A stretch of 62,682 nt of DNA, the filler included, from Rhabdomonas costata (Eukaryota), in NCBI GenBank assembly GCA_019059605.1. It is 47 parts of 47 records of this genome, joined end to end, with 100 filler letters (N's around TTAATTAATTAA, not from the genome) between each part and the next. Parts side by side here need not be neighbours in the genome. Positions count along the whole stretch, not along the records: positions 30,731 to 31,966 come from JAHMHO010022480.1; 46 more parts are not named here. One strand, written 5' to 3'. The position numbers and the translations under genes were made by a program. Positions 3,436 to 62,604 of this stretch are shown in pieces (the stretch's first letter is position 1; each line of letters starts with the position of its first letter). A model generated the notes under the pieces. That model was not told where the DNA came from, made no database searches, and worked only from the letters and a program-made list of their open reading frames with translations.

Positions 3436-5606
3436 GCACACACACACACACACACACTGTTCACCTTACTTCCCCATGAAAGAGTTTTTCGTGGCATCCC
3501 TACGGTGCTTGAAACACTTGGAAACAACGCCAAGCACAACGCTTAACAAGAGGCCTGTGAAAATTAAGTGCAAAGCTCACAACATCAGCAACCGGCTGGT
3601 GCTGAAGCAGACGTCTGACGCAATTGCCGCCGAAGGCGCTTGCGAACCAGACAGCTTGTCACGTAGCTGTCCAAAAGCTGCACCGCAAAAGAGCTCAGTT
3701 CGCGAAAATCTACTGTAAGCTCCCCAGAGTTTGGAGATGCAGCTCCTCTCTGTGAAAACAACACAAGTAGCTCCTTTGAAAATGCCTTTCCACCGCCAGG
3801 ACGCCCCCGGACCACCCCAGCTTATCGTCACTTCCTTTCAGTGGTGTCTGTGGTTCATCTCAAAATAAAAGGGCAACACAACCGACGCAAACAGCTGCGC
3901 GCGTTTTAGCAACACNNNNNNNNNNNNNNNNNNNNNNNNNNNNNNNNNNNNNNNNNNNNTTAATTAATTAANNNNNNNNNNNNNNNNNNNNNNNNNNNNN
4001 NNNNNNNNNNNNNNNGTTGGTGGGTGCACAAAGTGTGTACAGGACACCGGCTGGCCACTCATCCAATATCAGGGGCCAGCCGGTGTCCTGTACACACTTT
4101 GTGCACTTGGCAAGACAAACGCACACAGACACACAAAGTTGGCCCGCAAGTTCTGCAGGAGCTGCAGCTGGTTCGCCAGGCGGTCCCGCGCGTTGTGCAG
4201 CAGAGTAGTGCTGAGCTGGACCAACTCCAGCTCCTTCAGCTCTGGGTGCCGCCCATGCAGCGCTCGCAAAGTGGTACCCTGGATCTCTCGGAAGAGCCTT
4301 TTTTGGACGGGAGGGGAGAGGGAAGTTCATTGCCGTTTCTGTCCTACTTTCGGGCGGGGTGAAAAGAAAGCTTAAGGCCTAATGTGTCGACAATCTCTTC
4401 CTCCTTCTCTCTCTCTCTCTCGCTGTCGCTTCTTTCCCTTTCTCACTTTTCTTCCTTTTTTGGTTAATCGACACGGGATGGTCCAACTGCTCCGTTTGCC
4501 TTACTTAGAACTGAGCATGCCAGTGGAGCGCACAGAATCCACAGGAAGGAAAACAGGTGTCCAGCCCCAGCGTAGCAGGCGGTGACAAAAGAGAGGGAGA
4601 GAGAAATGCAGGAATGGAAGGGGTGGCAATGGGAGGGCTTTACTTGGGTAGCTCCTCCATCGGGCTGCACTCCAGCAAGTCCAGTATTCTGGCTTCAGCC
4701 TCCCCTGCACCACCAAAAGCGATACACCTCTGCTGTTACGGGGAGAAGAGGCCACTGTGAGTGACTGAACACGTAATATAATGCAAGGGTGGATAGTATG
4801 GATTCCTCCTGGAGGCTTGCAGGCACGATGAAAATTCGCAGCATTTTCAATAGCGGCAAAGAATCGTTCTGAGTATCGATCAGAATTTGGCTCGGAGTGC
4901 AACGAGAATAGTTTAGACACAGCTTTTCTTCTTCTTAAACGGCTTTCACACCGCCCAAGAAGCAGAAAAACAGCAAAGCTTTGTCAGAGGACCAAACCGA
5001 AAAACCTTTACCTTCAGAAATAGAAAGACGGGCATTCTGGGAAGGCAGCCATTTGCCCAGAGAGCTGGCATCTCCTTTTTAGACCTTTCAGACGTGTCGC
5101 CTCTGGTCCCAAAGCCCCCCACCCATTTCACCGCTGGCACCCGCACCACAACCTTCCAAAACACATCCTAGCTATTCTCCTCCATTGCGGTAAATGAGAG
5201 CATCTCCCCCAAGCGTTTCCACCACGTATGCATCACGCGAGAACAAAAAACANNNNNNNNNNNNNNNNNNNNNNNNNNNNNNNNNNNNNNNNNNNNTTAA
5301 TTAATTAANNNNNNNNNNNNNNNNNNNNNNNNNNNNNNNNNNNNNNNNNNNNGTTTTTTTTGTAATTGTTTTGCTCGACCTGTGAGTGGGAATATTGCAT
5401 TGTGGGAGGGGCTAAACGATTACGGGGGGGTAAACGTTCAACACCCTTAAGCGATCGAAAAGTCAAACTGAAAATTTGTGGCCTTGGGCATTGTCTATCT
5501 GAACTGAAATGTGCAAGACGTTCAGTGCACTGGTTTATGTCGTGTTGCGGTTTGACCCCTCTCAGCCCGCCGCGCTTCCGCACACCCACACATGTGTGAC
5601 GCGCAG

Positions 5607-8560: not shown

Positions 8561-9733
8561 TATCGTTCATAGAGGGCAACTGTGAAGTGGGCCGATGTCT
8601 GAATGGATGGTAAGGTAAGCGAGGTTGAGGAGTTTATCTCGGCTGGAGCCACGGATGGGTTCCGAAATGGCGCACCCCCTCGTCTGAATACGTCAGCGTG
8701 GAATTGCCCCATCCCTCACCCCAGGGTCAGCGACTTGTCCCAACAGAAGCAGCTCCCTCCACAGCAGCAAGATCTTGCTCACACACCACGGAGCCGCTTG
8801 GAGCATGAAATCCCTGGAATCAGAGTTGGTCCTCAAAGGGGAACCCGCCAAACTTTCAGTTCATTGTAAAGTGGGGAGAAAAAGTCGAAAAATGATTACA
8901 CTCAGCAATAGTCCTTCCTGGTCGTCAACGTCGAGCCCATGAGCTTTCCCTCGTAGCTCAAGGCCTGACTAACAAGCTTCGCAGAAGGCTCATCCGGGGT
9001 ACGAGTAACCTTAAAAAGGTCCCGTGGAACCTTATTCGGAGTCTTAATCTGCCAGTTACTGATCTCGGAGACTTCCTTGATCCTTTTGCTAATTGCAAGT
9101 AGTCGAGAACCTTTTCGGGTAAGCCCGTTACTACGTCGATCCCGGCAATCCCTTGGGCGTGGGATGGATAGGTCTTCAGGAACTCAAGATCGATGTACTC
9201 ACTTGGGTCAACGCATGTCAACGCCCAGTAAACCACCGGGTGTAGATCCGCTCCCAAACACCNNNNNNNNNNNNNNNNNNNNNNNNNNNNNNNNNNNNNN
9301 NNNNNNTTAATTAATTAANNNNNNNNNNNNNNNNNNNNNNNNNNNNNNNNNNNNNNNNNNNNGGTTTTTGGTGGTGGTTGCCACCCTCTCTCTTCGTCTC
9401 TAAGCCCAGTTCTGGCATCTTGAAGCGTAGGTTTGGGCCTTTTTACGGCTTTTTCGACTTTAGCCTCGTTTGCATGGAGAGCCCTTTAACCCTTTTAGGC
9501 GTGCACACTCAGCCTACGATTCTTGCGGGGCGGCTCAGCACACCTATGGGTAGGCGAGGGTGTGCGTGCACCAGAAACAAAGCAGTCAGGTCACCTCCCC
9601 GACAGGAGGCGTGCAGGTCACAGCTCACCATTCAGACGCTTGCATCGGACCCAAAACTACTCATCCCATTCCTGTTCATCCAGCCCGATCCCATTTATAT
9701 AATTCCACCACACACACAACCACACACACACAC

Positions 9734-10022
9734 CGATGGTCTTGATCTTCTCGACGTGGTTCTCAACGCAAAGGACATCAAACAGACTGAACACGTGATT
9801 GAGCGTGCTCACGAGCTCCGTGGGGCTGACGCTGAGGCTCAGCGCGGTGAAGCCGCAGATGTCGGCGAAGCACACAGTGACGTTGGGGTGGGCCCGGCAG
9901 ATCGGGCGCCCAGGATCCCCGGCGCGCGGGCTCTGCTGCGCAGAGGAGCTGCCCAACTTGGCCAGAAGCTCGTCCGCGATGGGGGCTGGCAGGATGCTCA
10001 GCAGAAGCTTCTGCGATAGCTC
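9734..10022 (-). CDS. Class III adenylate/guanylate cyclase, exon with the first half of the catalytic domain
   Basis: CAG...GT-bounded exon: ELSQKLLLSILPAPIADEL...VTVCFADICGFTALSLSVSPTELVSTLNHVFSLFDVLCVENHVEKIKTIG (LLxxILP, FADIxGFT and EKIKTIG motifs). Confidence 0.95.
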
Positions 10023-10703
10023 CTGCGAGTGAGAGTTCGGAAGAAAGGAACGGAGGGAGGAAAAACCAAGAAGAAGAAGAAGAGCTAGGATACAGGGAAG
10101 ACGATGCTAACGAAGCCAAAGACAGACAATGGCAAAAAAACAAACGCAACCCACCACCCGTGCTGTGATCACCCCCCCCCACTCCACCGTCCACCGTGGT
10201 GGAGCAGCAACCGAATGGCTCATGTCCGTATCCTCTGAGCCCCCTGAGCACTGAGCTGTGAGCGCGCAACCCTCGGCAACACTTCGGTTCCCAAGAAACC
10301 ATTTCTAATGTCGGGGGGGGGGTTCTGGGGATTATATTTGAAAACATGCCCAGAGGTTTTCTTTCTCTTTAAGTTTTTTGGGGTTATTTTTTTTGCGTGT
10401 CCACATCATTGATTTTTTGATTATTTTGATTTTCACTGGCGAATAACTTTAGACACCAAAACACTCACGGCACTGGGGCACAGGCACAAGAGTTCGGGAA
10501 GAGTGCAACACAAAAAACAACAATTTACAGGAAGGAACGCGAGAGAGATAGCAGGGGTGAACTAAGCACAAAAGAAACAAAGACGATAAACCACAAAANN
10601 NNNNNNNNNNNNNNNNNNNNNNNNNNNNNNNNNNNNNNNNNNTTAATTAATTAANNNNNNNNNNNNNNNNNNNNNNNNNNNNNNNNNNNNNNNNNNNNGT
10701 TTG

Positions 10704-14600: not shown

Positions 14601-14755
14601 CCCNNNNNNNNNNNNNNNNNNNNNNNNNNNNNNNNNNNNNNNNNNNNTTAATTAATTAANNNNNNNNNNNNNNNNNNNNNNNNNNNNNNNNNNNNNNNNN
14701 NNNGGTGTGGGGGCAGTTTAGTTTTACGCTATTCTCATTGCACGTCAATACACAG

Positions 14756-15139
14756 GTTCACGGGGTGTGCGTCTGCGATGACCCGAAGTACTTTTACGGA
14801 GTGGTGGACAAAATTCTGGAGGACTTCCGTGTCGCCGGGAATCCCTGCGGATTGCCGGAGTCCTCCCAGGAGCTGGTCAGCGTGATCGATGGGTACGTTG
14901 GGCCGGGCTACGCCCGGTGCACGGACGACGACCTGCAGCTGCAGGGCAGTGTCGCCCGGCAAACGGGGATGGTGCTCGACCCGGCATACACCGGGAAGGC
15001 CTTCCGGGCAGTGTTGTCGGAGCCGTGCTTCCGGGGCCGCTCCGTGCTGTTCGTGCACACCGGGGGGCTGCTGGGGGTGTATGAGAAGACCGCCCAGCTG
15101 CAGGCCCTGGGGCTGGGCCGCGTTACCCCAATCCCGTGA
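14756..15139 (+). CDS. D-cysteine desulfhydrase / ACC-deaminase family PLP enzyme, last exon
   Basis: VHGVCVCDDPKYFY...GPGYA...VARQTGMVLDPAYTGKAF...VLFVHTGGLLGVY, closely like plant-type D-cysteine desulfhydrase. CAG acceptor and TGA stop present. Confidence 0.93.
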   Translation, partial: VHGVCVCDDPKYFYGVVDKILEDFRVAGNPCGLPESSQELVSVIDGYVGPGYARCTDDDLQLQGSVARQTGMVLDPAYTGKAFRAVLSEPCFRGRSVLFVHTGGLLGVYEKTAQLQALGLGRVTPIP

Positions 15140-16138
15140 CGTGGAATGGGATAACCCCGGTGACCCTTCGTCCCCTCAGTCGTGAATGGGAGCCATGGCA
15201 GGTGACGACCTCTGCACCCCCTGCACAGGGACCGTAGCGTGGCGGAGAGAGGGTGAAGGTGGGCCGATTCTTTGCTAAAAGAGGTTCTGTGATGGCACCG
15301 GTAGACCACTCGGATCGGAGTCATTAGTTGTGTACGGTGACCATGTCTTCTGTCTGTCTGCAAGCGGTGGTTACACACGTTTATGTGGTTGTGGTTGTTG
15401 TGGTTGTGGTTGTCCTTCCATGCTGATTGGGATTCTTGTTGTGCATCAAGATGGTGTCAGAAACCTTTCCTGGACCCGTTGTACTGTGACATTCAATAGT
15501 TACAAACTGTAGCAGAACATCTGAACACACTTCAATACATTGCGTGCTTCTTCCAATACTATCCTGCACGCGCAGTAGCAGCAATACCGCAAAGGCATCC
15601 TCGACGTTTCATCCACATTCTGACGCTGGCCCTGGAGGGACCTGAATTTCATCACGTCCGCGCGGTTCCCCCATGCCCCGACCGAGCGCAGCATAATGCT
15701 CGGTTGCCGGGGCAAACGCAGCGAGGCCCCACCAAAGTCAGGCAGGTGCACAGGCGGCAGAGGTGGCACAACTTCTAACGGGCTCGCCCAGGAGGCGAAG
15801 CCGGGGCCGCACCAACGTCCACGATCGGCTCATGCGCCGAAGCCAAGCCCAGTGGGGGACTCCGTGGCTACATCGTCGTTGCACAGTCTTGGACGTAATG
15901 CTGGCCACATTGCAAACGATGCCGTTTTTCCCACCAACCNNNNNNNNNNNNNNNNNNNNNNNNNNNNNNNNNNNNNNNNNNNNTTAATTAATTAANNNNN
16001 NNNNNNNNNNNNNNNNNNNNNNNNNNNNNNNNNNNNNNNGTGGTGGGTGTGTTTGGGGTTGTGTGGCTGTCGCGCGGTAACGAAGCTTTGCTTATTTGTA
16101 CGCCTTTCTTTCATTGTTTTTTTTTGTGCGTTTCTCAG

Positions 16139-17008
16139 CTTCAGCAGGAGGTGCAGAGACTCAAGGATAAGCAAGAAGCGGAGGCGGCCGTTCCCCCGCT
16201 CTCCTCCAGTTTTTCGGCTGCTTCTTCCTCACCCATACAGTCATCGTCATCCTTCTCCAACGCAAATCTGCAAGGCGTGTCTAGCGTGTTTGAGCTGAAA
16301 GAATCCGGTGGACACGGAGGGTCCCTTTCCGGATCGTTTCTTGAGAGGGGTGACGCTGATCAACCCCAGCAGCAGAGCTGTCCCTGCTGTCAGGAGTCTC
16401 ACCCACCTGCATCCATGATAAGGATCGACTGCCCTCTGAAGCATGCTCTTTGCGAGCCGTGCTTCGGCGACTTCCTGAATTCTGTGGAGCAGGACTCCGG
16501 CGTGGCCCTGGCATGCCCCTTGTGCCCGGGGAAGGCTCAACAGTACCTCCTGCAGTTTCGCGACTTCGACTATTGTGCGCATGCACTCTCCAGGGCTCAT
16601 AAGGAGAGGATGGCCAAGATGCTGACCATGCCGCACATCCTCTCCGCTCCGAATATTGTTCGGTGCCCGGGGTGCCCCGGGGGCTTTGAGGTGCCGCTGC
16701 TGAATCTCAGGAACAACCCCAACCTTCTATCCGTGACTTGCCCTTACTGCGAACAATGCTTTTGTGCGCATTGCAAGCAGCTCCCGCACGTGCTGTGCAC
16801 TTGTGAGGAGCTGGTGCGGTACGGCAATTTGTGGAATCGGTGGGTTGCGGAGCAACGCGCGGGGTTCCAGCGCTCGCAGAGGGCCAATGCGGAGGCTATT
16901 CGGAGAGCTGAGAAGGAGCAGGTTGCGGCCGGGCTCCGGCTGCAGGAGTATGAGAAAGATGAGGCCTGGAAGGAACAGCACTGCCGGATTTGCCCGCACT
17001 GCAGGCGG
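16139..17008 (+). CDS. RBR (RING1-IBR-RING2) E3 ubiquitin ligase, large internal exon
   Basis: RING1 CPCC...CPLKHALCEPC...CPLC, IBR CPGC...CPYCEQCFCAHCKQLPHVLCTC, and the start of RING2 (CRICPHC), followed by a GT donor. Confidence 0.9.
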
Positions 17009-17608
17009 GTGTGGGGCATGCACGAGACCTGTTCTCCGTCCTGCACTCGGAATTATTAAATTGTTCTTGAGCTTAATCCCCTGTCATCTGCCATCCCGGC
17101 CTTTCTCCCTGCCATCGTTTGGGCTGTTTTTATCACCGGTCTTCATAATGTTTCTGTCCCTTCGTTTTTTTTCGCATTAGGGCCGACAAAAATTACAGTA
17201 GCCCAGTAGCACAAGTGTGGCAAGGAAACGCGGTGATTCGGAAATAGAATTTAACGGCCCTAATGCAAAAAAAAANNNNNNNNNNNNNNNNNNNNNNNNN
17301 NNNNNNNNNNNNNNNNNNNTTAATTAATTAANNNNNNNNNNNNNNNNNNNNNNNNNNNNNNNNNNNNNNNNNNNNGTTTTTTGTGAGTTTGGATTTCGCC
17401 GACAGGAGTCTTTCCTTGATAGTCCGGACTCTGGGTTGGCAGCCTTGTTCAGCGGCGAACAAACAGGACCGTTGTATGGGCTCATCGGACCCAACCAATA
17501 CTTTGGGAAACTGGAATCTCTCACCCTGCCGCGGGGGGTACTGCCTATTTATTGTTGGCTGTTTTTCTCAGCCCTTTTTTATTTCCTGGGTTTGTTTTTC
17601 AATTTCAG

Positions 17609-25787: not shown

Positions 25788-26226
25788 TCACTCCTTGATC
25801 ACAGCCAGAATGTCTGCCTCCTTGTACACATAGTACTCTTCTTCATCGATTTTCAGCTGGGCCCCATAGAAGTCGGGAAGAAGGACTTTGTCTCCCTTCT
25901 TCAGCGTCATCACGTGGTCCTTGGTACCTGAAGTGAATAAAAAGAAATCACCTGGACAAAGAACAATGTAATGGAAAACAACGGAAATGTATTTATTGGC
26001 ATTTAAGCACTGTACCTGGTCCGACAGCCAAGACAGTGGCTTCATTAGCTCTTTTGACCGAAGATTCCGGGATCACAACACCAGTCTTGGTTTGCTTGGC
26101 GACCTGCATCCGCTGCACCAAAACTCGGTCACCCAGAGGAACAATAGTCTTCGCCTAAGCAAAAGCAAAAGAAGAACTGCATAACAGGGGCTTCCGTACC
26201 AGCCTCAATAGTGCAGCCCAACGCCA
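25788..26226 (-). CDS. HSP10: Mitochondrial co-chaperonin Hsp10/Cpn10 (exons 26016-26154 and 25788-25927; probable presequence exon 26200-26226)
   Basis: AKTIVPLGDRVLVQRMQVAKQTKTGVVIPE...EATVLAVGPG/TKDHVMTLKKGDKVLLPDFYGAQLKIDEEEYYVYKEADILAVIKE*, with an 88-nt GT-AG intron. Confidence 0.96.
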
Positions 26227-26797: not shown

Positions 26798-27052
26798 TCC
26801 CAGCATAGCTTTATTTCAGTATTACGAACTTTCCGTCTCGTCCTGGAGCAACTATGTTCCTTTGGGGGAGGGGGGGAGGAGTTTTGGCGCTTTACGGTGC
26901 AAAGCGTGCATCATACAGTTTGTTTTCCAAACACTCGTTCCCAAGTGAAACTGCCACCAAAGTTTTTCCATTTGAGATCGGCACAGCCCTGCTGGATGGG
27001 TCATAAGGCCCCCCACCCCTTCCGCAGCTTTTGTGGAGCCGGGGGGCGACAC

Positions 27053-27280
27053 CGCGTTCTCGGCGTCCGCCAGGTCCACGGCCTGCCGCAGACGCTCTTC
27101 GCTGGTGCCCCCGCCGTACCCCTCGGCGGTGTCAAAGAAGGTGACTCCTGCGGCCACCGCACGGCGGACCATCGCAGCGAGCTCGGCCAAGGGGATCACC
27201 AGCCCCCCGTTGACGAGCTTGTCCAGGCGCGTGTTCCCCCACGCCATGGTGCCGATGCCCAGGGGCACAGGAAGCTCCAT
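27053..27280 (-). CDS. Aldo-keto reductase, 5' exon
   Basis: MELPVPLGIGTMAWG...AVAAGVTFFDTAEGYGGGTSEERL shows the LGxGT and FDTAExYG..SE motifs. The 3' boundary is approximate. Confidence 0.92.
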
Positions 27281-28908
27281 TTCTGCGATCTCCTTTTCTT
27301 GCTGTCCCAAAGCGAACACACGCAAGAGGACTTCTGACTCTTCCCAGTCCTTAGGGCACAATGGACTGCGACTACAAAGAAAACGGGTTGTTGTACAAGA
27401 AACAAGGCACGGTAAAAATTAGGTCTGATTTTCAGTGGAGACCCACACAAAGGGTGAACAATTGCTTGTCAAGAGACAGCCGGCGCATGATGTGATGGGA
27501 GATTGTCAATGCAGGGGTTAAAGTTAAGGCTGAAGGCTGAAAAAGAACTTGAGCCAGCGGAGCAAGGGAATTGACGACTCTCTTCATCGACATGTCGACG
27601 CTTCACACCTTGAAACTCTCAGAGAAGGTTAAGCACTGAATCCCACCCCCACAAAGACACAGCTAGACTCCCATCGCCGATTTCCCCGGAAGTCAATTGG
27701 CTAAGGCTCAAAGCACAAGAAAAATCACAGGAAGAACGTCACCAGATGAAGTGTGTGGTGGCAGTACCAGCTGCAGAGCTCTCGAAAAAAGGGAGCATCC
27801 TCCCGACACATTCATCCCGGCAACACACTATGTACAGGCCAACAAAACCCGGGGGAACAGGGGGGGCAAATACGCCCCCCCCTCCCCCACCATGTCGCAG
27901 CTCAGCACTTGGCAACGAGTGGGTACGTTGTTGCCTGAGGGAGCACGGACTTCCCCACAAACNNNNNNNNNNNNNNNNNNNNNNNNNNNNNNNNNNNNNN
28001 NNNNNNTTAATTAATTAANNNNNNNNNNNNNNNNNNNNNNNNNNNNNNNNNNNNNNNNNNNNTGGTTTTGAGGAAGAGCCGGACGGGGAGGATTCTAGTG
28101 CCGTTGGCGCCGGACACCGCGGTTTTGTACCGCAATTCCACCTCCAGCACGTTGAGAGCAGCCAGGCGAGCCTGGTGAGTCGACATCAGCCTTTGGGGTC
28201 ACCCGCGAAGAGAACACAGTTCGTTTTCACAAGTGTGTATGGAGGGCAATGCCAAAGTTGGTTCTGGGGCAGCTTCTTTCTTCGGATTGTCGAGTGCTAT
28301 CATGATATCAATTTTTTTTGGGGAGAGGCAGCAGGCATTCACGAGTGGAGCTGCCGGCGTGCCAACTGGCATGAATCCTTCTTCTTGTCAAGCACAAATC
28401 AGAAGAAAGCCCCCTTGGAAGGCACCGGGCAGCTGTAGTCTTTCAAGCTAGTGTCTGGGCCCTGAGCTCTTGAGCTGTTGCGATTTCTACAAAGTCCGAC
28501 CGCAAGGAACCCAGCGTCCCTACCGCATATGGCCCGGTAGCAGCAGTATGGTGGCAGTTACAATCTAACGAATCGTGACGTGTGGAGTACCCCGTCCATT
28601 ATGATAGGAGGTTCGGGGTTACCGAAACATAACGGACAGTGAGGACCGTGTATGTACTTCTTTGTGGTCAGGTTGAAGTCGAAGTCTTAACAATAATTTG
28701 AGCTTCGGGTTTTCCTTTCCCTTCGCTTTGCTGTGGTGAAAGCATGGGTTAACTTCAAAAAGAGAACATTTCGTCCCTATCACATGACCTAACGCCCCAC
28801 CTCACTACGGACTCGGCATTCAAAAAAAAGACCAACAGTCAGACTGACAACACAACCTGAAGTGAAAAAGGAAAAAACACAGCCGCCAGCCGCCCAAGCC
28901 CCCTTAAC

Positions 28909-29150
28909 CTCTCTGCGAGGTCGTTCATCGATGAGCTCTGCAGCACCTGGTCCACGAAGTTCACGAAGAGGTGGTTTGCCAGCGAGGGCCCCACACGGCG
29001 GTCCGCCACTGCAATCTCCAGCGAGGTCACCGCCTCGAGCACGATCTGCTCTCCGGCGCCCGGGCCGAGCTCCCCGTTGTCATCCACTCGAGTGTCGGCG
29101 GGGTAGGCCAGCACTCGGACAAAGAACCGAGTCTCTGGGTTGGCCACCCG
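28909..29150 (-). CDS. Internal exon, hypothetical protein
   Basis: GC3-rich frame FFVRVLAYPADTRVDDNGELGPG...NDLAER ending at a GT donor. The 5' boundary is uncertain. Confidence 0.5.
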
Positions 29151-30505
29151 GGGAAAGGCGCCCGAGGAGGAAGAGGAGGATGCAGCAGAGGGGACAGGAC
29201 AAGCGTACCCCCACAGGGAAAGGGCCTCACATTTCCGCGAAGGCATCCCCTTACACCTTTTTATAACGTTGGATCTTGGGGTCCGGGTACCACAAAAANN
29301 NNNNNNNNNNNNNNNNNNNNNNNNNNNNNNNNNNNNNNNNNNTTAATTAATTAANNNNNNNNNNNNNNNNNNNNNNNNNNNNNNNNNNNNNNNNNNNNTT
29401 GTGTTCAAGAGGGCTGGGCGTTGACCGAAAGAGATTCCGTTTATTCTAATCGTTGTGAGGCATCAAGAAAAGAACGGCTGAATCTTTTCCCTTGGAACCA
29501 CTAGCTTTGCTTCATTGTGCTGTTACGTCAGGATTCAGATAAGGTAATAAATTGTTTTGGTCTCTTCTCGTTTGAACAATTGTCTTGACCTCATATGCCT
29601 CCTGTGCTTCTTATTTTGGTTCAGCACCAGCTTCCTTTTGAGCTTTATTTTGGGCAGACTTTGGTTCAGCAGAGAACTTTCAACCTTGTGCCCACTGTGA
29701 GAAGGTTTGATTCCAGGGAAAAGTCCTGCGCTGTGGTCCATCCTGAATCTGCACTGCTGGCGGAGAGGATGATCGCACCTCCCGTCCGAATCACAGCGAA
29801 GCCCCCACTGCAGCGCACCCGGCCCCGGCCTACTATAGTTCCCTTGGATGAGGGCCGTGCTCCGAAGCCGGCCTCCTCTGCCGCCGCGGGCACCGCCTCC
29901 AAGAGCCCCTACGAGCGCGCTGCCGGGGGGGTGTACTATGAGCAGACCCCAAGGTCGCACGGCCGCCTGAGGAGCACGAGCTGCCCCCACCCGAACTTCA
30001 CCCCAACCTCGTCTGGGTCGGTGCTGTCGTTCAGCCCGATCTGCTCGAACTGGGCCGATGAGATGGACAAGATGGATGACCGCCTGAGTCGGAAGGTCGC
30101 TCTCACAGACATTAATCCCCACCTACTTGCCGACCCACCCTCTTGTGATTCCGCTTTGCAGTACATTGGAGTAGGAGTAGCTTTGTTAGGGAACTTCCGC
30201 ACACTTATGGGTTGTTCGACCTTTTCGGACCCTGCAAGCACAATGAGCCCATACCCACTTGCTATCATGTGGTTGTGGGTGATGGGAGCTGCAGACGGTA
30301 GATAAACCGCTGCGCACGCGTGCGCTCTGCGTCGAAGTATGGGTGGCTGTGCTGTGTGAAACTTCCTTGTGTGTTTTGTGTAAATAATCACTTTCTGCCC
30401 CATCTGCGCTCCACCCCATTGCTAGAAACGCGCCAAATAAATAGGCCGCCGTGAAGGCTCGCCTCCCCTCAGCCTACACCGAGTCACCCGCTCCAGCGGC
30501 ACCGG

Positions 30506-30536
<31 letters not shown>

Positions 30537-30568
30537 CTCTTCCACTTCCTCCTCCTCCTCCTCCTCCA
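30506..30568 (+). repeat. (CCT)n / polypyrimidine microsatellite
   Basis: Directly visible. Confidence 0.9.
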
Positions 30569-30730
30569 CTGCAACCCACCAAAGCACCCAACATACCCAT
30601 CGTTACAGCAACACCAGCATACAACCCCACNNNNNNNNNNNNNNNNNNNNNNNNNNNNNNNNNNNNNNNNNNNNTTAATTAATTAANNNNNNNNNNNNNN
30701 NNNNNNNNNNNNNNNNNNNNNNNNNNNNNN

Positions 30731-31394
30731 GTGTGGGGGGTGAGCACGGGCTTGAACTTCGGGGTGTCCTGAGTGATGCTGTAGGATGCCAGCAGGGCCA
30801 CGATCCCGGCCTCGTCGTATGTGGAGACGTCGGCCCTCCCTACCTCGGCCTCATTCTGGTCGAAGAAGGTGATCACAGGGGGACGCCCAGGGATGTAGGA
30901 GACCTCCAGGGCGGGGTACTTGGGCGCTTCCGAGTGGATGAAGTTCTTCACCTGATGCATGCAACCACTTGTTGCAGCAGCGGCATAGCGCAGTGTGGGT
31001 GATGCGTTTCCCAAATGCAAAAGTGAAGCATACAAGCTCCGCTCAGTGCTGCCACACAAGCACAAAGACAAAGCAGAAGGGTGGCTCTTCCAGATAACAT
31101 GATCATTGAGATGGGGAGGGCAGCACAAAGCAATAACAGAAAATAAAAATGAAGCAGCATTCTTTCTTTCTTAAAGTGGGGAAGAGGGAAAAATGCCATG
31201 CTCTCAAGCCTGGAAGAAGTGTGGGGGGTGGGGAAAAGGGTGAAGTAGTCAAAGAAGAGAGAGGGAACCTTCGGAAGCCGATTGAGCTGTCATCCAGAGC
31301 AAGTCTCCAGCCGGGCAAAGGCGGCAGGCTGCGGGTCCGCGCTGACTGCCCATAAGGTGAGCAGTACCAGCAAGGCAACATCCCCACCCCTCAT
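30731..31394 (-). CDS. SELENOM: Selenoprotein M (SelM/Sep15 family) with in-frame UGA at 31290-31292; exon 1 31269-31394, exon 2 30951 to contig edge
   Basis: MRGGDVALLVLLTLWAVSADPQPAAFARLETCSG[UGA]QLNRLPK/VKNFIHSEAPKYPALEVSYIPGRPPVITFFDQNEAEVGRADVS. It has a signal peptide, a CxxU motif and conserved QLNRL after the UGA, with a phase-0 GT-AG intron. Confidence 0.93.
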
Positions 31395-33511
31395 TGCTTG
31401 TCACTAACAGGAAAAAGCCCAAAAGTTTCTGTGAATAGGGTGACATCCTGGTCATCGCAAATATCAGACAGGTTCACTAATGAAAGGGAAAAACACATTC
31501 AGGTTCGCAGCAAAATATCGTTCCGTCACGTTCGATTATCTCAAAGAAAGAGATTCAGGAGCGGAAGGAAACAACCCCCGCAAAGCCATTCCCCAAACTG
31601 CATCGACGCATCATCGAAGGCAAGCAACATTGTTTCAAGTACGGTCATTACAGTCCATTGGAAAGCACATCACATACAGCAAAAAGCACAAGATGCGCAA
31701 TAGCAGCACCGCGGCACTGCTTGAAGGGACAAAGGACAAACCCACACCAGCGGTATGGAACAGAACAACCTCAGCACTTCACATCAACGTTCAAGCGCAG
31801 GCGAAGAGTGAAAATGGCAGCGGAAAAAAGCGGGTGGCCACTTGGCCCTCCCCACACATTCACAAGTCGATATCGAAGAGCTTGACTTGCTCCTCCATGG
31901 GAATCACGGGCTCCGCGGCTGTCAGCAGTCCAAGCAGCGCATGTACAGCCTGCACCCCCCCCAACCNNNNNNNNNNNNNNNNNNNNNNNNNNNNNNNNNN
32001 NNNNNNNNNNTTAATTAATTAANNNNNNNNNNNNNNNNNNNNNNNNNNNNNNNNNNNNNNNNNNNNGGTTTGTGGTCATCGACCAAGAAAAGCCTTCAAA
32101 ACCCCTTGAAATAAATCGAAGTGAAGGGTGCAGAGGCGTGATCGGGCGCTTGCCCACGCTTCTTGTCTTTAGTCTTTAGTGAAACCTTACATCCCATTTT
32201 CATGGCGCCCATGCCTTGCGGAATGTCGGCCACCACCGGTTGGGGTCAAGCTTGGAGAAGTCCATCTCGAATGGCTGCTCTGAAAAGGGCGGATGCGAGA
32301 GGAGTGCCTACAAACAGCATAGATAATGAGGAACATCGTCTTGAACATTAATGAATTCCCAACAAGAAGCATCGATAATGGTTTTACAAGAAGGCCCCGC
32401 ACTAAAGTCTTTTCCTGAGGTTGGGACATCCGGTCTCTGGTGGACTTCTGCAAACTGCTGTTCTTCGATCTGCTGAACACCCCCAAGTTGTTTTGCTTGG
32501 CCTGCTGCTTGTTACAAGTGCGGTCAACTCCCAGGTCGGAGGAAGAAGGTACACCGTAAACCGGCCTCGATGCCGTAGCCCTCAATAGCGTCAAACTTGG
32601 ACCTGCTGACAAAAAGCCTCACAGCAATGCTCTTGAACACCTCTACACGCCTCGGCTTCCCTTTCTGGCATTTTCGTTGCCTTGAGCCTTACTTATTCTT
32701 CAGATTGCATTGTATCGGCAAGGCCCCCGCACACACAAAGAGACATCCAGGTCAGGGTGATGTTAAAACTCTCATGTTGAACTCTCATCAACTCTCATGT
32801 TCAGTTCAGAAGGTTTCCGTTCAAAAGCTGATAAATAGTCTCAGGGAAGCGGCTGATGCCGATTGGCGGACATTCGCCTCCAAGACACACCTTCTTCCCC
32901 CCCACCCAAGTTCGATTTGCTCCCTCGCCCCTCACACACCGTATTTCTTCGTTGTGGTGGGGTTGATCGGGCGGAAGGCCACCCTCCGCACAAAGGAGGA
33001 GGTGGAGTGGAAGTCCCGGGGCACCCCACCCCAGCCCTTGTCCACCCACCTGAGGCGAGAGCCGTCGCGCCGAACCGTCCCATCGCCCGATTACAAATTT
33101 TCTTCTACCAAAAACCCGAAAACCGGGCGGGAAGCAGAAAAGGCGGAAATGTGGTTTGTGGCTGCATCTGGTTTGCCCTTTTGGGGCACGCACAGCCCTC
33201 TTGGAACCGGAAGAACGCACATCGTCGGCAAAGACAAGCACCAAAATATTGCGTGAAATATAGCCTACTCTGTTTCAACCTTCATTCAAAGCAAAAAAAT
33301 CCNNNNNNNNNNNNNNNNNNNNNNNNNNNNNNNNNNNNNNNNNNNNTTAATTAATTAANNNNNNNNNNNNNNNNNNNNNNNNNNNNNNNNNNNNNNNNNN
33401 NNGGGGTGGTGGGAGCCGTTTTTATTAATGACTCGTTCGTTGCCTTATCTGAACAACTAAAATCAGGCATAAAAGCTATCAAACCTCCCCGTGATTGTTC
33501 CTGTCTTTCAG

Positions 33512-41273: not shown

Positions 41274-43894
41274 GTTCACATCCACTACACTCCCATTTGT
41301 TATCATATCCGGCACANNNNNNNNNNNNNNNNNNNNNNNNNNNNNNNNNNNNNNNNNNNNTTAATTAATTAANNNNNNNNNNNNNNNNNNNNNNNNNNNN
41401 NNNNNNNNNNNNNNNNGTGGGGGGGGTAGAAAGGCCTGGTAACCTTACTGCAGGGCTTGCCTCTTTGCTTGGCCAGGAATTTGTGCTGGTGTATTCCAGC
41501 CCTTTTTCAGGATAAGGAGGGAGAGAGAGAGGGAATTACGGTAGCCAGGTGTGCGAGGCCTGCACGATTCCATTGAATTTCCTGTATTTCCTCATAGGAG
41601 ACCGTGCTTCTTGGTTTTCATTGCAGGAGCGAGATAAAGGAGTCACTGTTGGAAGGAAAATCTCTTGATGCAAGAGGTGGTGTCAAGATGAATGGAGGCG
41701 TTGATAGAGAGATTGAGTTTTGGTTTGTTAGGCAAGGGATGGGCTTTGGAGGCGGGTGAGTGTACACGGAGTCCTCTTGTCATGCCTTTGCTCTCGTTTC
41801 AGCGTTTGCGAACTGCCGTTCTTTTTTTGTGATGTTTTTTGCTGGTCAATCATTGGTTTTTTGTGTAAAAAGAAAATCCTTTAGGAGTAAAAGTGGGGGT
41901 TCCTGTGCACGGTGTAAACTTTTGTTCTCGTGCAAAGTTGGAGTTGGAGGGCACACACGTGTGTGTCTCCTTGAAGGGGGCGGGGGTCAGCACAAGTCCT
42001 CTGCCCCAGTTGTGCTCTGTGGAGAAGAGTCTCCAAAGAGTGTTTTGTTCTGTGTCTTTTTCAGGATGTGCTGAAAAGATAGGGGGCCGCTGGTTCGGCC
42101 CTCTTACCTTTCATTTTTCAATGCAAGTGGGTTGCTTTTGTTTCCTTCTGGTCGTGCCAGAGCGAGAGCAGCCCGTCTTATCTCCTTCTCTGCGCCCCTC
42201 CCCTGCTCATTTGTGTCATGTCTTGTTGTCAAAACCGTGGTTAACCGCAGATCACCTGACTTCCGCTTGGCTGTCCATGTCCTGTCACCGGAATACCCCT
42301 CCCCCCTTTATATTCGTCTCTTTTTCCTTCTCTCACTTCTTTGCATCCTCCGGAACCAGCGATATTGACAGCCGATAACGAAAGATCGGCCTTCTCGGGC
42401 AGTTCACACCTATATAACCATCACCATGAATGCGAAGATTCGTTGAGGGAAGGGTAGACACATTGGTGGCAGCACATTGAGTTCCTGGTTTTTTTGGTGG
42501 AGGGGTTGGTTTTCAATGCTTCTAACGTCTTTGAGTCAGCCCATCCTTCGCCCTTTCCAGCCTTGGGCCGAATGTTACTGAATCTGCAGGACTGGAAAGG
42601 GCGAAGGATGGGCTGACTCAAAGACGTTAGAAGCATTGAAAACCAACCCCCCNNNNNNNNNNNNNNNNNNNNNNNNNNNNNNNNNNNNNNNNNNNNTTAA
42701 TTAATTAANNNNNNNNNNNNNNNNNNNNNNNNNNNNNNNNNNNNNNNNNNNNGTGGTGGGTGTGTTTGGGGTGTGTGGTGAAATACAACTCGCTGAACTG
42801 GTGTGCTGACCTGAGGCTTTTCAGATCATCTGAGGGATGCACCCGAAAGAGAAAGAGAACCTTACATTTCTCGTGTGCTTTTTGCTTTTCTGCTTTCCGT
42901 GTTTGGGCGTTTGGGCACAGGAAAAGCCAAAGCCAGTTCCAATAGAACATCGACGTTTCCGGAAACAAGGCCAATTTACTGCTTGTACCTTCTTCGTTCA
43001 TGTTGTCAATTTTACAGTTTCTCTTCTTTCATTATCGTTGCACTCGCTTTGCATCCAGGCAAACTTTAAACATCGCTATTGTGGACTTTTGGAGTGCATG
43101 CAGTTTTTCCAGGCCAATGCCATAATTGCACATAAATTCGCTCCGTCTTCCTCCTCCTTCGTCTTTCTTGTCGTGTAGGACCCGTCCACCCCTTTGAAGA
43201 CGCCGCATATCATATAGGCGATACTTCCATTCATTGTCATCTTCGCAAACCCACATCTGTGCACGTGTCGGGGGACTGTTGACTGCTACCCCCCCCCAAA
43301 AAAATGAGGTTCGCACAATGGCTACCCAAGCTCAGATGTGCTCTCCACCCGAGCAGGGGCCGCACCGCTCCGGGTGGCCTTGGAGGGCCAGTCACCCCCA
43401 GGAGATCCGTCCCTGAGCATGGCATCAATCTGCTGAACCTCCAGCGCTGTCTGGTGCGAAAGACAATGAGCGAACGAGCGAGCGAGCGAGAGAGGTCTTT
43501 CGCTTGGACAGTGGACAATTCGTCGCTTCCGTTATGCAGCGACGATTGCCACTGATGAACTGGAAAATTGTTCTGAACCCCAGATGTGCTCTGTGTGTTC
43601 TCAGGTGCTCTCAGTGGATATGTGGGTGTGCATTGCCTCCGCTTTGCTTCTTGCAGCCCATAAGCCATAGGCCTAGATAGGGGGACCTTTAAGTGGACCT
43701 ATCTACCTAGCTTGCACAGCCCCACACCCACACCATTGTACAGCCTCGGGGCCTTGTGGGGTTCTGAGTAAAGGGAACCCTGGTGAACTGTGGTTTATCC
43801 GTCCTATAGGGCGGTCCCGCAGGGCAGTAGGACGGAGACGCCAGAACCCGCGGACCTGGCGTCAAGCCGATTTCTCGGGAACCTGTGGACACTC

Positions 43895-43941
43895 TTGCTT
43901 TGCTTTGCTTTGCTTTGCTTTGCTTTGCTTTGCTTTGCTTT
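43895..43941 (+). repeat. (TTTGC)n pentanucleotide microsatellite
   Basis: Directly visible. Confidence 0.96.
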
Positions 43942-44320
43942 AATATGCTATGCTTGCTTCGCACGAGAATCTCAGCCTTCCCCACCACCNNNNNNNNNNN
44001 NNNNNNNNNNNNNNNNNNNNNNNNNNNNNNNNNTTAATTAATTAANNNNNNNNNNNNNNNNNNNNNNNNNNNNNNNNNNNNNNNNNNNNGGGGGTTTGGT
44101 GTCAGTAACAACACCTCTATCATCCTTGGCCATGGGTGGAGACCAACCATTTATAACAGTCTTCCAAGTCTCTGGACAGCAAGACTTGGAAGACTGTTAT
44201 AAATGGTTGGTCTCCACCCATGGCCAAGGATGATAGAGGTGTTGTTACTGACATCAAACCCGAAAAAGATTGGGATTCCACTGAGGATGAAGCTGCTCTG
44301 GGTAACTCTCGTGCTCTTAA

Positions 44321-61091: not shown

Positions 61092-61624
61092 TTGCACCAG
61101 CTACCTCCTGCTCTTGCGTTGTTGCGTTCGTGCGACCTCTCATGTGTCACTAAGCCCTTCCGCCACTCCGCTTTCATCCCTCTATTCTGGCAGCGTTCTT
61201 CTCCCTTACATACTTTTTAGTAAGTTCGTTTTTTGGTTGTGAAAATGAAAACGGTTGTGTACCTTTCCTCCAGTTGCCTTCTCCTGGGCCCCTGGAAAAG
61301 GCAACGGGAGGAAAGGTACACAACCGTTTTCATTTTCACACCACAAANNNNNNNNNNNNNNNNNNNNNNNNNNNNNNNNNNNNNNNNNNNNTTAATTAAT
61401 TAANNNNNNNNNNNNNNNNNNNNNNNNNNNNNNNNNNNNNNNNNNNNGTGGGGAGGAAAGAATTTTGATTTGAATTTTGATGTCCGATCAGCTGAAAAAA
61501 CGCCACCGAGGGCTTTTGCCGCTCGCAGCCAAAGTTATCCACCCAGTTTTTCTTCAGCTGATCGGACATCAAAATTCAAATCAAAATTCTTTCCTCCTGA
61601 CCCACTCCCCCAAGTCCACCATAC

Positions 61625-62604
61625 CTTGCTGTCCCAAATGCATATCGTGTTGTCCGCAGAACCGGAAAGCAGAAAATCACCGACGTTGACCAACACCGTG
61701 ACCGCACTTTTGTGATGGCGAAGAACTTGAAGGCAAGTGAAATTCTGTTTATCAAAAACGAAAAGAAAAACAGAAAGGAGGAATTTTCGAAAATCTCGAA
61801 AATTGCTGACGTAACAAACGGACGCCAAATGCAAAGGAAAGCGAAAAAGCCTGAGTACCTTGACGTCCCACAGCCCAATGGTATTGTCCTCTGATCCACT
61901 CCAAAGGATGTTGTCAAAGGACAAAGCCAGGGCTAAAAGGGCGTGCTTGTGGGCCTGAAGCTGAAACTTGGAACTGAAATCCTGAGAATTTTACAGAATG
62001 CAAAAGCCGCAATAAACTCAGTGGAACAACGCCACAAAAAAAGAACAGAAAAGCAGAGCCGTGTCTACCGGTAAGCTCCAAACGTACAGTGCTCCATCCT
62101 CAGAGCCACTGCAAAGTGCGTCCGGTGTGACAGCCAGACAGCGTACTGCCGCACGGTGCCCTTCCAAGCGATGGGTAAGCTGAAATGTCTGAACGAAATT
62201 ATGCACACAACAGTCATGCTTAAGGAAATGCCGTGAAACGTCGTCATAAGAAGGAAAACGAGAAACTGCTCCGGCAGCGACCTCAGCATTCCAAACAAGA
62301 ACTGTGGCATCGTTGGCCGCCGAGAACACCCAGTTGCTTGAGGTGGCGATGGAGCGAACTGCGCCCGAGTGCTCACGCGCCTCGTGAACCACGCCAGCTT
62401 CCTGATAGCACACAGAGAAAGAAATGAAAGGTATGGTATGACAAGATATATATGCAGCTCATATTCAAAGGGAAAGCATACTGAAATATCGTAAACGCAG
62501 AGCAGTCCAGAGCTACAGCCAATCCAAACTTGTGCGAAACGTTTCAGAACGACGGTAGCGACTTCTTTGTGTCCAACGCGAAGAACAGACTCCACAATGC
62601 CACC
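61625..62604 (-). CDS. WD40-repeat protein, partial (exons 62482-62604, 62282-62401, 62069-62188, 61859-61981, 61625-61744)
   Basis: Each exon is one repeat, e.g. HRLEGHRAAVRCLAV...CSGSEDGALYVWS and HHKSAVTVLV...LSGSADNTICIWD. All introns are phase-0 GT-AG. Confidence 0.94.

Follow-up and report, generated by a model that had tools for sequence, protein, structure and literature searches.

An in-frame TGA within an otherwise conserved gene can be a codon for selenocysteine (Sec, U), a corrupted Cys codon or an ordinary sense codon of a variant nuclear code, and a gene on a short contig of Rhabdomonas costata raises the question of which of these it carries. The gene was found in a stretch of DNA of 62.7 kb (hereafter, the window), which consists of 47 contigs of 1232–1241 bp each, joined by N runs around TTAATTAATTAA (e.g. 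30631–30730 and 31967–32066). Because the window is a concatenation of separate contigs, features on different contigs are unlinked, and the genomic context of the gene is confined to its own contig, 30731..31966 (1236 bp). A sequence-only reading had proposed that this gene encodes selenoprotein M (SelM, SELENOM) with UGA recoded as Sec. Its basic elements, namely the ATG at 31394, the motif ARLETCSG-TGA-QLNRLPK, the phase-0 GT-AG intron and the frame still open at the contig edge, all hold in the sequence, and comparison with homologs indicates that this is a SelM gene of the CxxU type, very probably read with Sec at the TGA.

Exon 1 (31269..31394, minus strand, 42 codons) runs from the ATG at 31394–31392 to ...QLNRLPK, as read in the sequence and aligned with mouse SelM and homolog N-termini, and is translated as MRGGDVALLVLLTLWAVSADPQPAAFARLETCSG-TGA-QLNRLPK; another in-frame TGA stands three codons upstream of the ATG (31403–31401). 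The redox motif C-S-G-U (CxxU) occupies 31290..31301 on the minus strand, with the TGA at 31292–31290, as seen in the sequence and in the mouse SelM and homolog alignments, and no Cys precedes C32 in the exon. The table-11 ORF list ends its first ORF at this TGA (31290..31394, 34 aa), in agreement with the earlier statement that ORF calling breaks the gene there. Ahead of the motif, the N-terminus (31335..31394, minus strand; MRGGD / VALLVLLTLWAV / SAD) has the shape of a signal peptide: its start is charged, a hydrophobic core of 12 residues (6–17) comes next, and the small-residue stretch SAD follows. Kyte-Doolittle hydropathy, by which this putative signal-peptide-like segment was recognized, reached 3.17 over residues 4–11 in 9-residue windows, and in the alignment the N-termini of full-length homologs are likewise hydrophobic over a comparable length. 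Upstream of the ATG, a pyrimidine-rich stretch (31417–31406) is followed by an AG (31405–31404) that stands 9 nt before the ATG (31404..31417 in total, minus strand, read directly); the sequence-only reading had pointed to both as a possible spliced-leader acceptor, and they are indeed present, where they could represent a trans- or cis-splice acceptor or could have arisen by chance.

The two exons are separated by a CT-rich, phase-0 GT..AG intron of 317 nt and of spliceosomal type (30952..31268, minus strand), recognized from the sequence and from colinearity with homologs; its GT lies at 31268–31267 and its AG at 30953–30952, and the donor sequence, GTTCCC, falls short of a strong canonical 5' splice site. 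Exon 2 (30731..30951, minus strand), which is supported by the Pfam match to Sep15_SelM and by 29 homologs, comprises 73 codons plus 2 nt, starts at 30951 with VKNFIHSEAPKYPALEVSYIPGRPPVITFFDQNEAEVGRADVSTYDEAGIVALLASYSITQDTPKFKPVLTPH and reads VKNFIHSEAPKYPALEV...ITQDTPKFKPVLTPH up to the edge at 30731, which is a real end of the contig and cuts the gene. It contains the body of the Sep15/SelM thioredoxin-like domain (30787..30951, minus strand; Pfam positions 17–71 of 75) and, according to the homolog alignment, a linker TPKFKPVLTPH (30733..30765, minus strand) that is cut by the contig end. When both exon translations were aligned with 19 of the 29 phmmer matches, the homologs read ...C..C.LNRLPKVK.F... 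uninterrupted where the gene has LNRLPK-intron-VKNF; since they read LNRLPKVK.F across the junction, the proposed splice from 31269 to 30951 is supported to the residue by this comparison. Likewise, tblastn matches of most homologs to exon 2 began at 30951–30954, five homologs aligned across the TGA, and the start of exon 2 is where Pfam coverage picked up, at profile position 17. No remainder of the gene was found on another contig of the window by tblastn of the 29 homologs (best match outside the SelM contig, E = 0.068).

The family of the gene was established separately from each exon. The HMM search that the sequence-only reading had put forward as a check gave a clear match: exon 2 alone scored 43.7 bits against Pfam Sep15_SelM (PF08806; cut-off 26, E = 2.9e-11, positions 17–71 of 75), and this match was unchanged when a longer ORF was used. 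Exon 1 alone, with U stored as C, found mouse SelM (2A2P, residues 15–30) as its best PDB match; AFARLETCSG[U]QLNRL and ARGRVETCGGCQLNRL of 2A2P are identical at 12 of 16 positions, counted from the alignment, and the TGA lines up with the Cys at the redox site of the 2A2P chain, which we take to replace the natural Sec in that construct. An exhaustive phmmer search with exon 2 over 1.84 billion representatives returned 29 matches with E ≤ 1e-3, the best of them at 51–57% identity, and word-index searches at near and longer lengths found no near-identical protein. In the ESM Atlas, all that exon 2 retrieved were clusters of Sep15/SelM, belonging to Rhodophyta, Arthropoda and Chordata (0.90–0.91), which confirms the family for this exon and says nothing about the taxon. 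The two exons thus identify the Sep15/SelM family independently, an agreement at the sequence level that is far beyond chance.

Within this family, Sep15 (SELENOF), a redox protein of the ER, is characterized by the motif CxU and by a Cys-rich, UGGT-binding domain at its N-terminus. That the gene could be a Sep15 rather than a SelM is suggested by the fact that the Pfam family is common to both and that exon 2 alone weakly matches fly Sep15 (2A4H, E = 0.75), and the two proteins share domain and fold. The gene, however, has CxxU instead of CxU, its redox motif follows directly after the signal region without any N-terminal Cys-rich domain, its exon 1 matches SelM 2A2P and not Sep15, and any extra module that it possesses would be C-terminal. 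A profile of 14 close relatives searched against the PDB preferred mouse SelM (1.7e-9) to fly Sep15 (2.2e-5), and these two were also the top two PDB fold matches of the AlphaFold model (pLDDT 90.6) of P0004, a full-length Cys-form relative with 43% identity. Because of the CxxU motif, the lack of an N-terminal Cys-rich domain and the preference of the relatives' profile for mouse SelM, assignment to the SelM type is supported, as the sequence-only reading had it, and we regard a Sep15 identity as very unlikely; it was rejected on motif, N-terminus and profile scores. The traits of SELENOM found in the gene are the Sep15/SelM domain, the CxxU motif with its in-frame TGA and a signal-like N-terminus directly before the redox motif, whereas the Sep15 traits, a CxU motif and a Cys-rich N-terminal region, are absent.

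Given that the gene is a SelM, how is its TGA decoded? Conservation continues in frame on both sides of the codon (ETCSG and QLNRLPK), matching homologs such as IETCSGCRLNRLPK, and the alignments with 2A2P and with the homologs agree in placing the TGA on the Sec/Cys redox column, as had been claimed. Among the 29 homolog gene models, the motif is included in eight, with C at the Sec column in seven and W in one, and is missing from the other 21. Of these motif-less models, 15 have their first residue, encoded by a Leu, Val or Met codon, 2–8 positions beyond the Sec column, their N-termini reading MNRLP.., LNRLP.., VK.F.. or MK.F.., and such starts would be expected of gene callers that had been stopped by an in-frame TGA. 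Since 15 of the 21 motif-less models begin just after the column, the distribution suggests that TGA at the Sec column is frequent in this subfamily.

The decoding machinery was sought throughout the window. Rfam at the gathering threshold gave 0 matches over its whole length, and at an E-value threshold neither the contig nor the window yielded a SECIS element or tRNA-Sec, but only sub-threshold miRNA-like hairpins; for SECIS the search reached E ≤ 10 in the SelM contig, from which the 3' UTR is missing. No tRNA of any kind, tRNA-Sec included, was found in the 62.7 kb by ARAGORN and Rfam, and none of SPS2, PSTK, SepSecS, eEFSec and SBP2 was present among the 201 Pfam-scanned ORFs, a sample too small to speak for absence. 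Because the 3' UTR lies off the contig and the real sequence of the window amounts to ~58 kb of random fragments, far too small a sample of a large genome, the missing SECIS and tRNA-Sec weigh little.

The main alternative to Sec is a Cys-form SelM in which a TGC or TGT appears as TGA through an error of sequencing or assembly, or has turned into TGA by a recent nonsense mutation that made the gene a pseudogene. The TGA is documented by one base triplet of an extremely fragmented assembly (contigs of 1232–1241 bp), Cys forms are common among the relatives, as the seven of eight motif-including models with C illustrate, and the lack of a SECIS in contig and window also points in this direction, with the limit that the contig does not reach the 3' UTR. 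On the other hand, both exons are otherwise intact and conserved, with start, signal region and splice sites in place, and the 15 models that begin just after the column suggest that TGA is frequent there. In animal SelM, moreover, Sec occupies this same redox column, which counts against a Cys form. Taken together, we consider a Cys-form gene with an erroneous or mutated codon to be improbable, roughly at the level of an outside chance.

Still further from expectation is a variant nuclear code that assigns TGA regularly to Trp or Cys instead of Sec, which we judge to be extremely unlikely. With Trp at this codon, the CxxU/CxxC redox motif, a conserved feature of the family, would be lost; the TTAGGG telomere array and a GC content of ~52% in the window do not fit Euplotes, a lineage that reads TGA as Cys; and exons in the window run for as many as ~300 codons without a stop of the standard code, the RBR-like one for example, which is a weak argument since the ORFs are stop-delimited. 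Such codes do exist, and the homolog model P0021 has W at the column. According to PMC12153298, UGA is read as Trp in Blastocrithidia, and dual use of UGA for Cys and Sec or for Trp and Sec is found in ciliates and a dinoflagellate. Besides the W of P0021 at the Sec column, the first Cys column of the motif is occupied by W in P0025, and these residues may be TGA codons translated under a table with TGA as Trp. Once the SelM identity is accepted, Sec decoding of the TGA is, in our estimate, highly likely.

The sequence-only reading had further suggested, from the frame that is open beyond the core domain, that the protein has a C-terminal extension, and the relatives make this plausible. A Cys-rich module follows the SelM domain in the top five matches and in 12 of the 29 homologs in total (P0003–P0008, P0010, P0011, P0015, P0020, P0023 and P0024, all 50% cluster representatives). 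It is ~65 residues long with eight conserved Cys (C.AWRQTG.C.P.G.RE...D..C...I..G.SGYCEC...C.H..F.C...C), and 11 of its 12 carriers end in a KDEL-like tail. All 12 carriers have a TPK-type linker ahead of the module, as is found at the contig edge, where the reading frame of exon 2 breaks off inside this linker; TPKFKPVLTPH aligns with TPKFVPLMTTTEFC, TPKFMPQIVPTPEC and TPAFIPVISPTAEC of module-bearing homologs. Seven homologs have a TPK-like motif and no module, most of them being short or aberrant models. In a tree of the SelM domain, exon 2 fell on the side that holds all 12 module rows, the other side consisting of nine rows that have none, the split itself being weak (53/91). From these alignments it is plausible that the gene continues past the contig into a C-terminal extension. 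Among the other homologs, P0009 has two tandem SelM domains.

The module of the relatives matched no Pfam family, VHL and ShK included, no PDB sequence and no usable ESM Atlas entry. Its predicted structure is confident (pLDDT 96.7), and a PDB fold search with it gave nothing significant (best E = 1.2, TMq at most 0.36). To our knowledge, it bears no similarity to the Cys-rich domain of Sep15. By analogy with that N-terminal domain, the module could serve as a partner- or client-binding domain.

Compared with animal SELENOM as represented by mouse 2A2P, the Rhabdomonas gene shares the signal-type N-terminus followed by ...ETC(G/S)G-U-QLNRL..., the thioredoxin-like Sep15/SelM domain and the Sec at the second redox position of CxxU, but the identity over the domain is only about 25–40%. 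The mouse chain has no counterpart of the module, only positions 2–74 of the 158 in the profile having matched 2A2P, whereas the Rhabdomonas gene probably continues into it; within its cut sequence neither a SECIS nor an ER-retention tail can be seen. The closest resemblance is to the 12 module-bearing homologs, which are the best matches to exon 2 (37–57% identity) and agree with the gene in the LNRLPKVK.F stretch at the junction and in the linker of TPK type; they differ in being visible to the C-terminus, whereas the Rhabdomonas gene is cut before the module, and in that several of them are Cys forms or models truncated after the Sec column. Sec-containing SelM is also known from other unicellular eukaryotes, since PMC7539508 counts SELENOM among the Sec proteins with the widest distribution in algae, and PMC2375036 reports Sec-containing SelM from Ostreococcus and Thalassiosira. 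C-terminal fusions of SELENOM are recorded in the former source as well, to pVHL in Aureococcus and to ShKT in Emiliania, and the module of the present relatives, unlike those, matches neither VHL nor ShK.

Euglenids go unmentioned in the main text of PMC7539508, and neither a SelM or selenoproteome of any euglenid or euglenozoan nor a Cys-rich SelM fusion was described in the literature that we searched, which lies outside the subscription journals. The restriction of trypanosomatids to SelK, SelT and SelTryp, which the sequence-only reading had taken as established, agrees with PMC1557815 and PMC12153298. Its attribution of the gene to a probable euglenozoan, and the wider selenoproteome that it inferred for that lineage, stand as conjectures. 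We offer only tentatively, as an idea that is more doubtful than not, that the gene belongs to a SelM subfamily, absent from the searched literature, which is composed of a Sec domain, an 8-Cys module and a KDEL-like tail, and that, if the host is a free-living euglenozoan, SelM existed in this phylum and was lost in trypanosomatids.

The remainder of the window was surveyed for its gene content. Out of 246 ORFs of at least 85 aa, 201 stop-to-stop ORFs (53 + 148) were scanned against Pfam, the 45 shorter ones falling outside the scan; most of the window had no Pfam match, and the families found (IBR, WD40, class III cyclase, aldo-keto reductase, PALP, the central region of acetyl-CoA carboxylase and Cpn10) are all generic eukaryotic ones, with no lineage-restricted family among the 201 ORFs. 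On the plus strand, Pfam matches identified an RBR/IBR E3-ligase-like exon of ~300 codons (16136–17056), for which a word-index protein search found no close protein, and a PALP enzyme fragment (14705–15136). Those on the minus strand are fragments of a class III adenylate/guanylate cyclase (9660–10106), Cpn10 (25791–26072) and the acetyl-CoA carboxylase central region (28842–29297), and WD40 repeats in two frames with an intron or frameshift between them (61538–62458).

At a contig end (26725–26798), TTAGGG is repeated 12.3 times in an array of telomere type, the unit being given as GTTAGG in the repeat search. An aldo-keto reductase exon (26855–27418, minus strand) lies on the same contig, and its gene is therefore subtelomeric. 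A TTAGGG telomere array together with a cis-spliced intron is compatible with a euglenid and also with many other eukaryotes. The contig at 44090–45325 is a GC outlier (0.367 vs about 0.52) with a hairpin or palindrome of ~146 nt, especially at 44104–44249, where many sub-threshold matches to miRNA families occurred on both strands; it was examined as a possible organellar clue, and no coding match was found in it. Three other hairpin-forming stretches (4020–4111, 42533–42619 and 61240–61337) matched miRNA models on both strands well under the gathering scores and are probably not miRNA genes but inverted repeats. Simple repeats were seen at 30506–30567 on the contig adjoining that of SelM ((CCT/GAG)n, ~21 copies), at a contig start (3–88, (TGTGA)17) and at 43895–43959 ((TTGCT)13).

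The picture that we propose, and hold to be likely on the whole, is that the contig carries the 5' two-thirds of a nuclear SELENOM-homolog gene with a signal-like N-terminus, a CSGU motif encoded through TGA, one intron and a Sep15/SelM domain, of which the Sec recoding and the C-terminal module are what we infer. From what is established for the SelM family, the 3' UTR of the mRNA would contain a SECIS element, by means of which SBP2, eEFSec and tRNA-Sec would recode the single UGA as Sec. The product would be a lumenal thiol-disulfide oxidoreductase of the ER, presumably cycling through a selenenylsulfide between Cys32 and Sec35 as expected of SelM proteins. Judging from the closest relatives, the protein would run on into the ~65-residue module with its eight cysteines and would end in a KDEL-like ER-retention tail.

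The gene adds to a known and widespread family that is already recorded in algae and protists. That standard ORF callers break selenoprotein genes at the Sec codon is a well-known pitfall, and an annotation of this assembly would overlook the SelM gene described here or cut it short. The more open question concerns the Cys-rich C-terminal module of its closest relatives, which has neither a named family nor a solved fold. If the host belongs to the euglenids or to other free-living euglenozoans, the gene would provide a data point for the reduction of the selenoproteome in parasitic kinetoplastids, one that accords with the trend, already published, for aquatic protists to have large selenoproteomes and would leave that picture unaltered.
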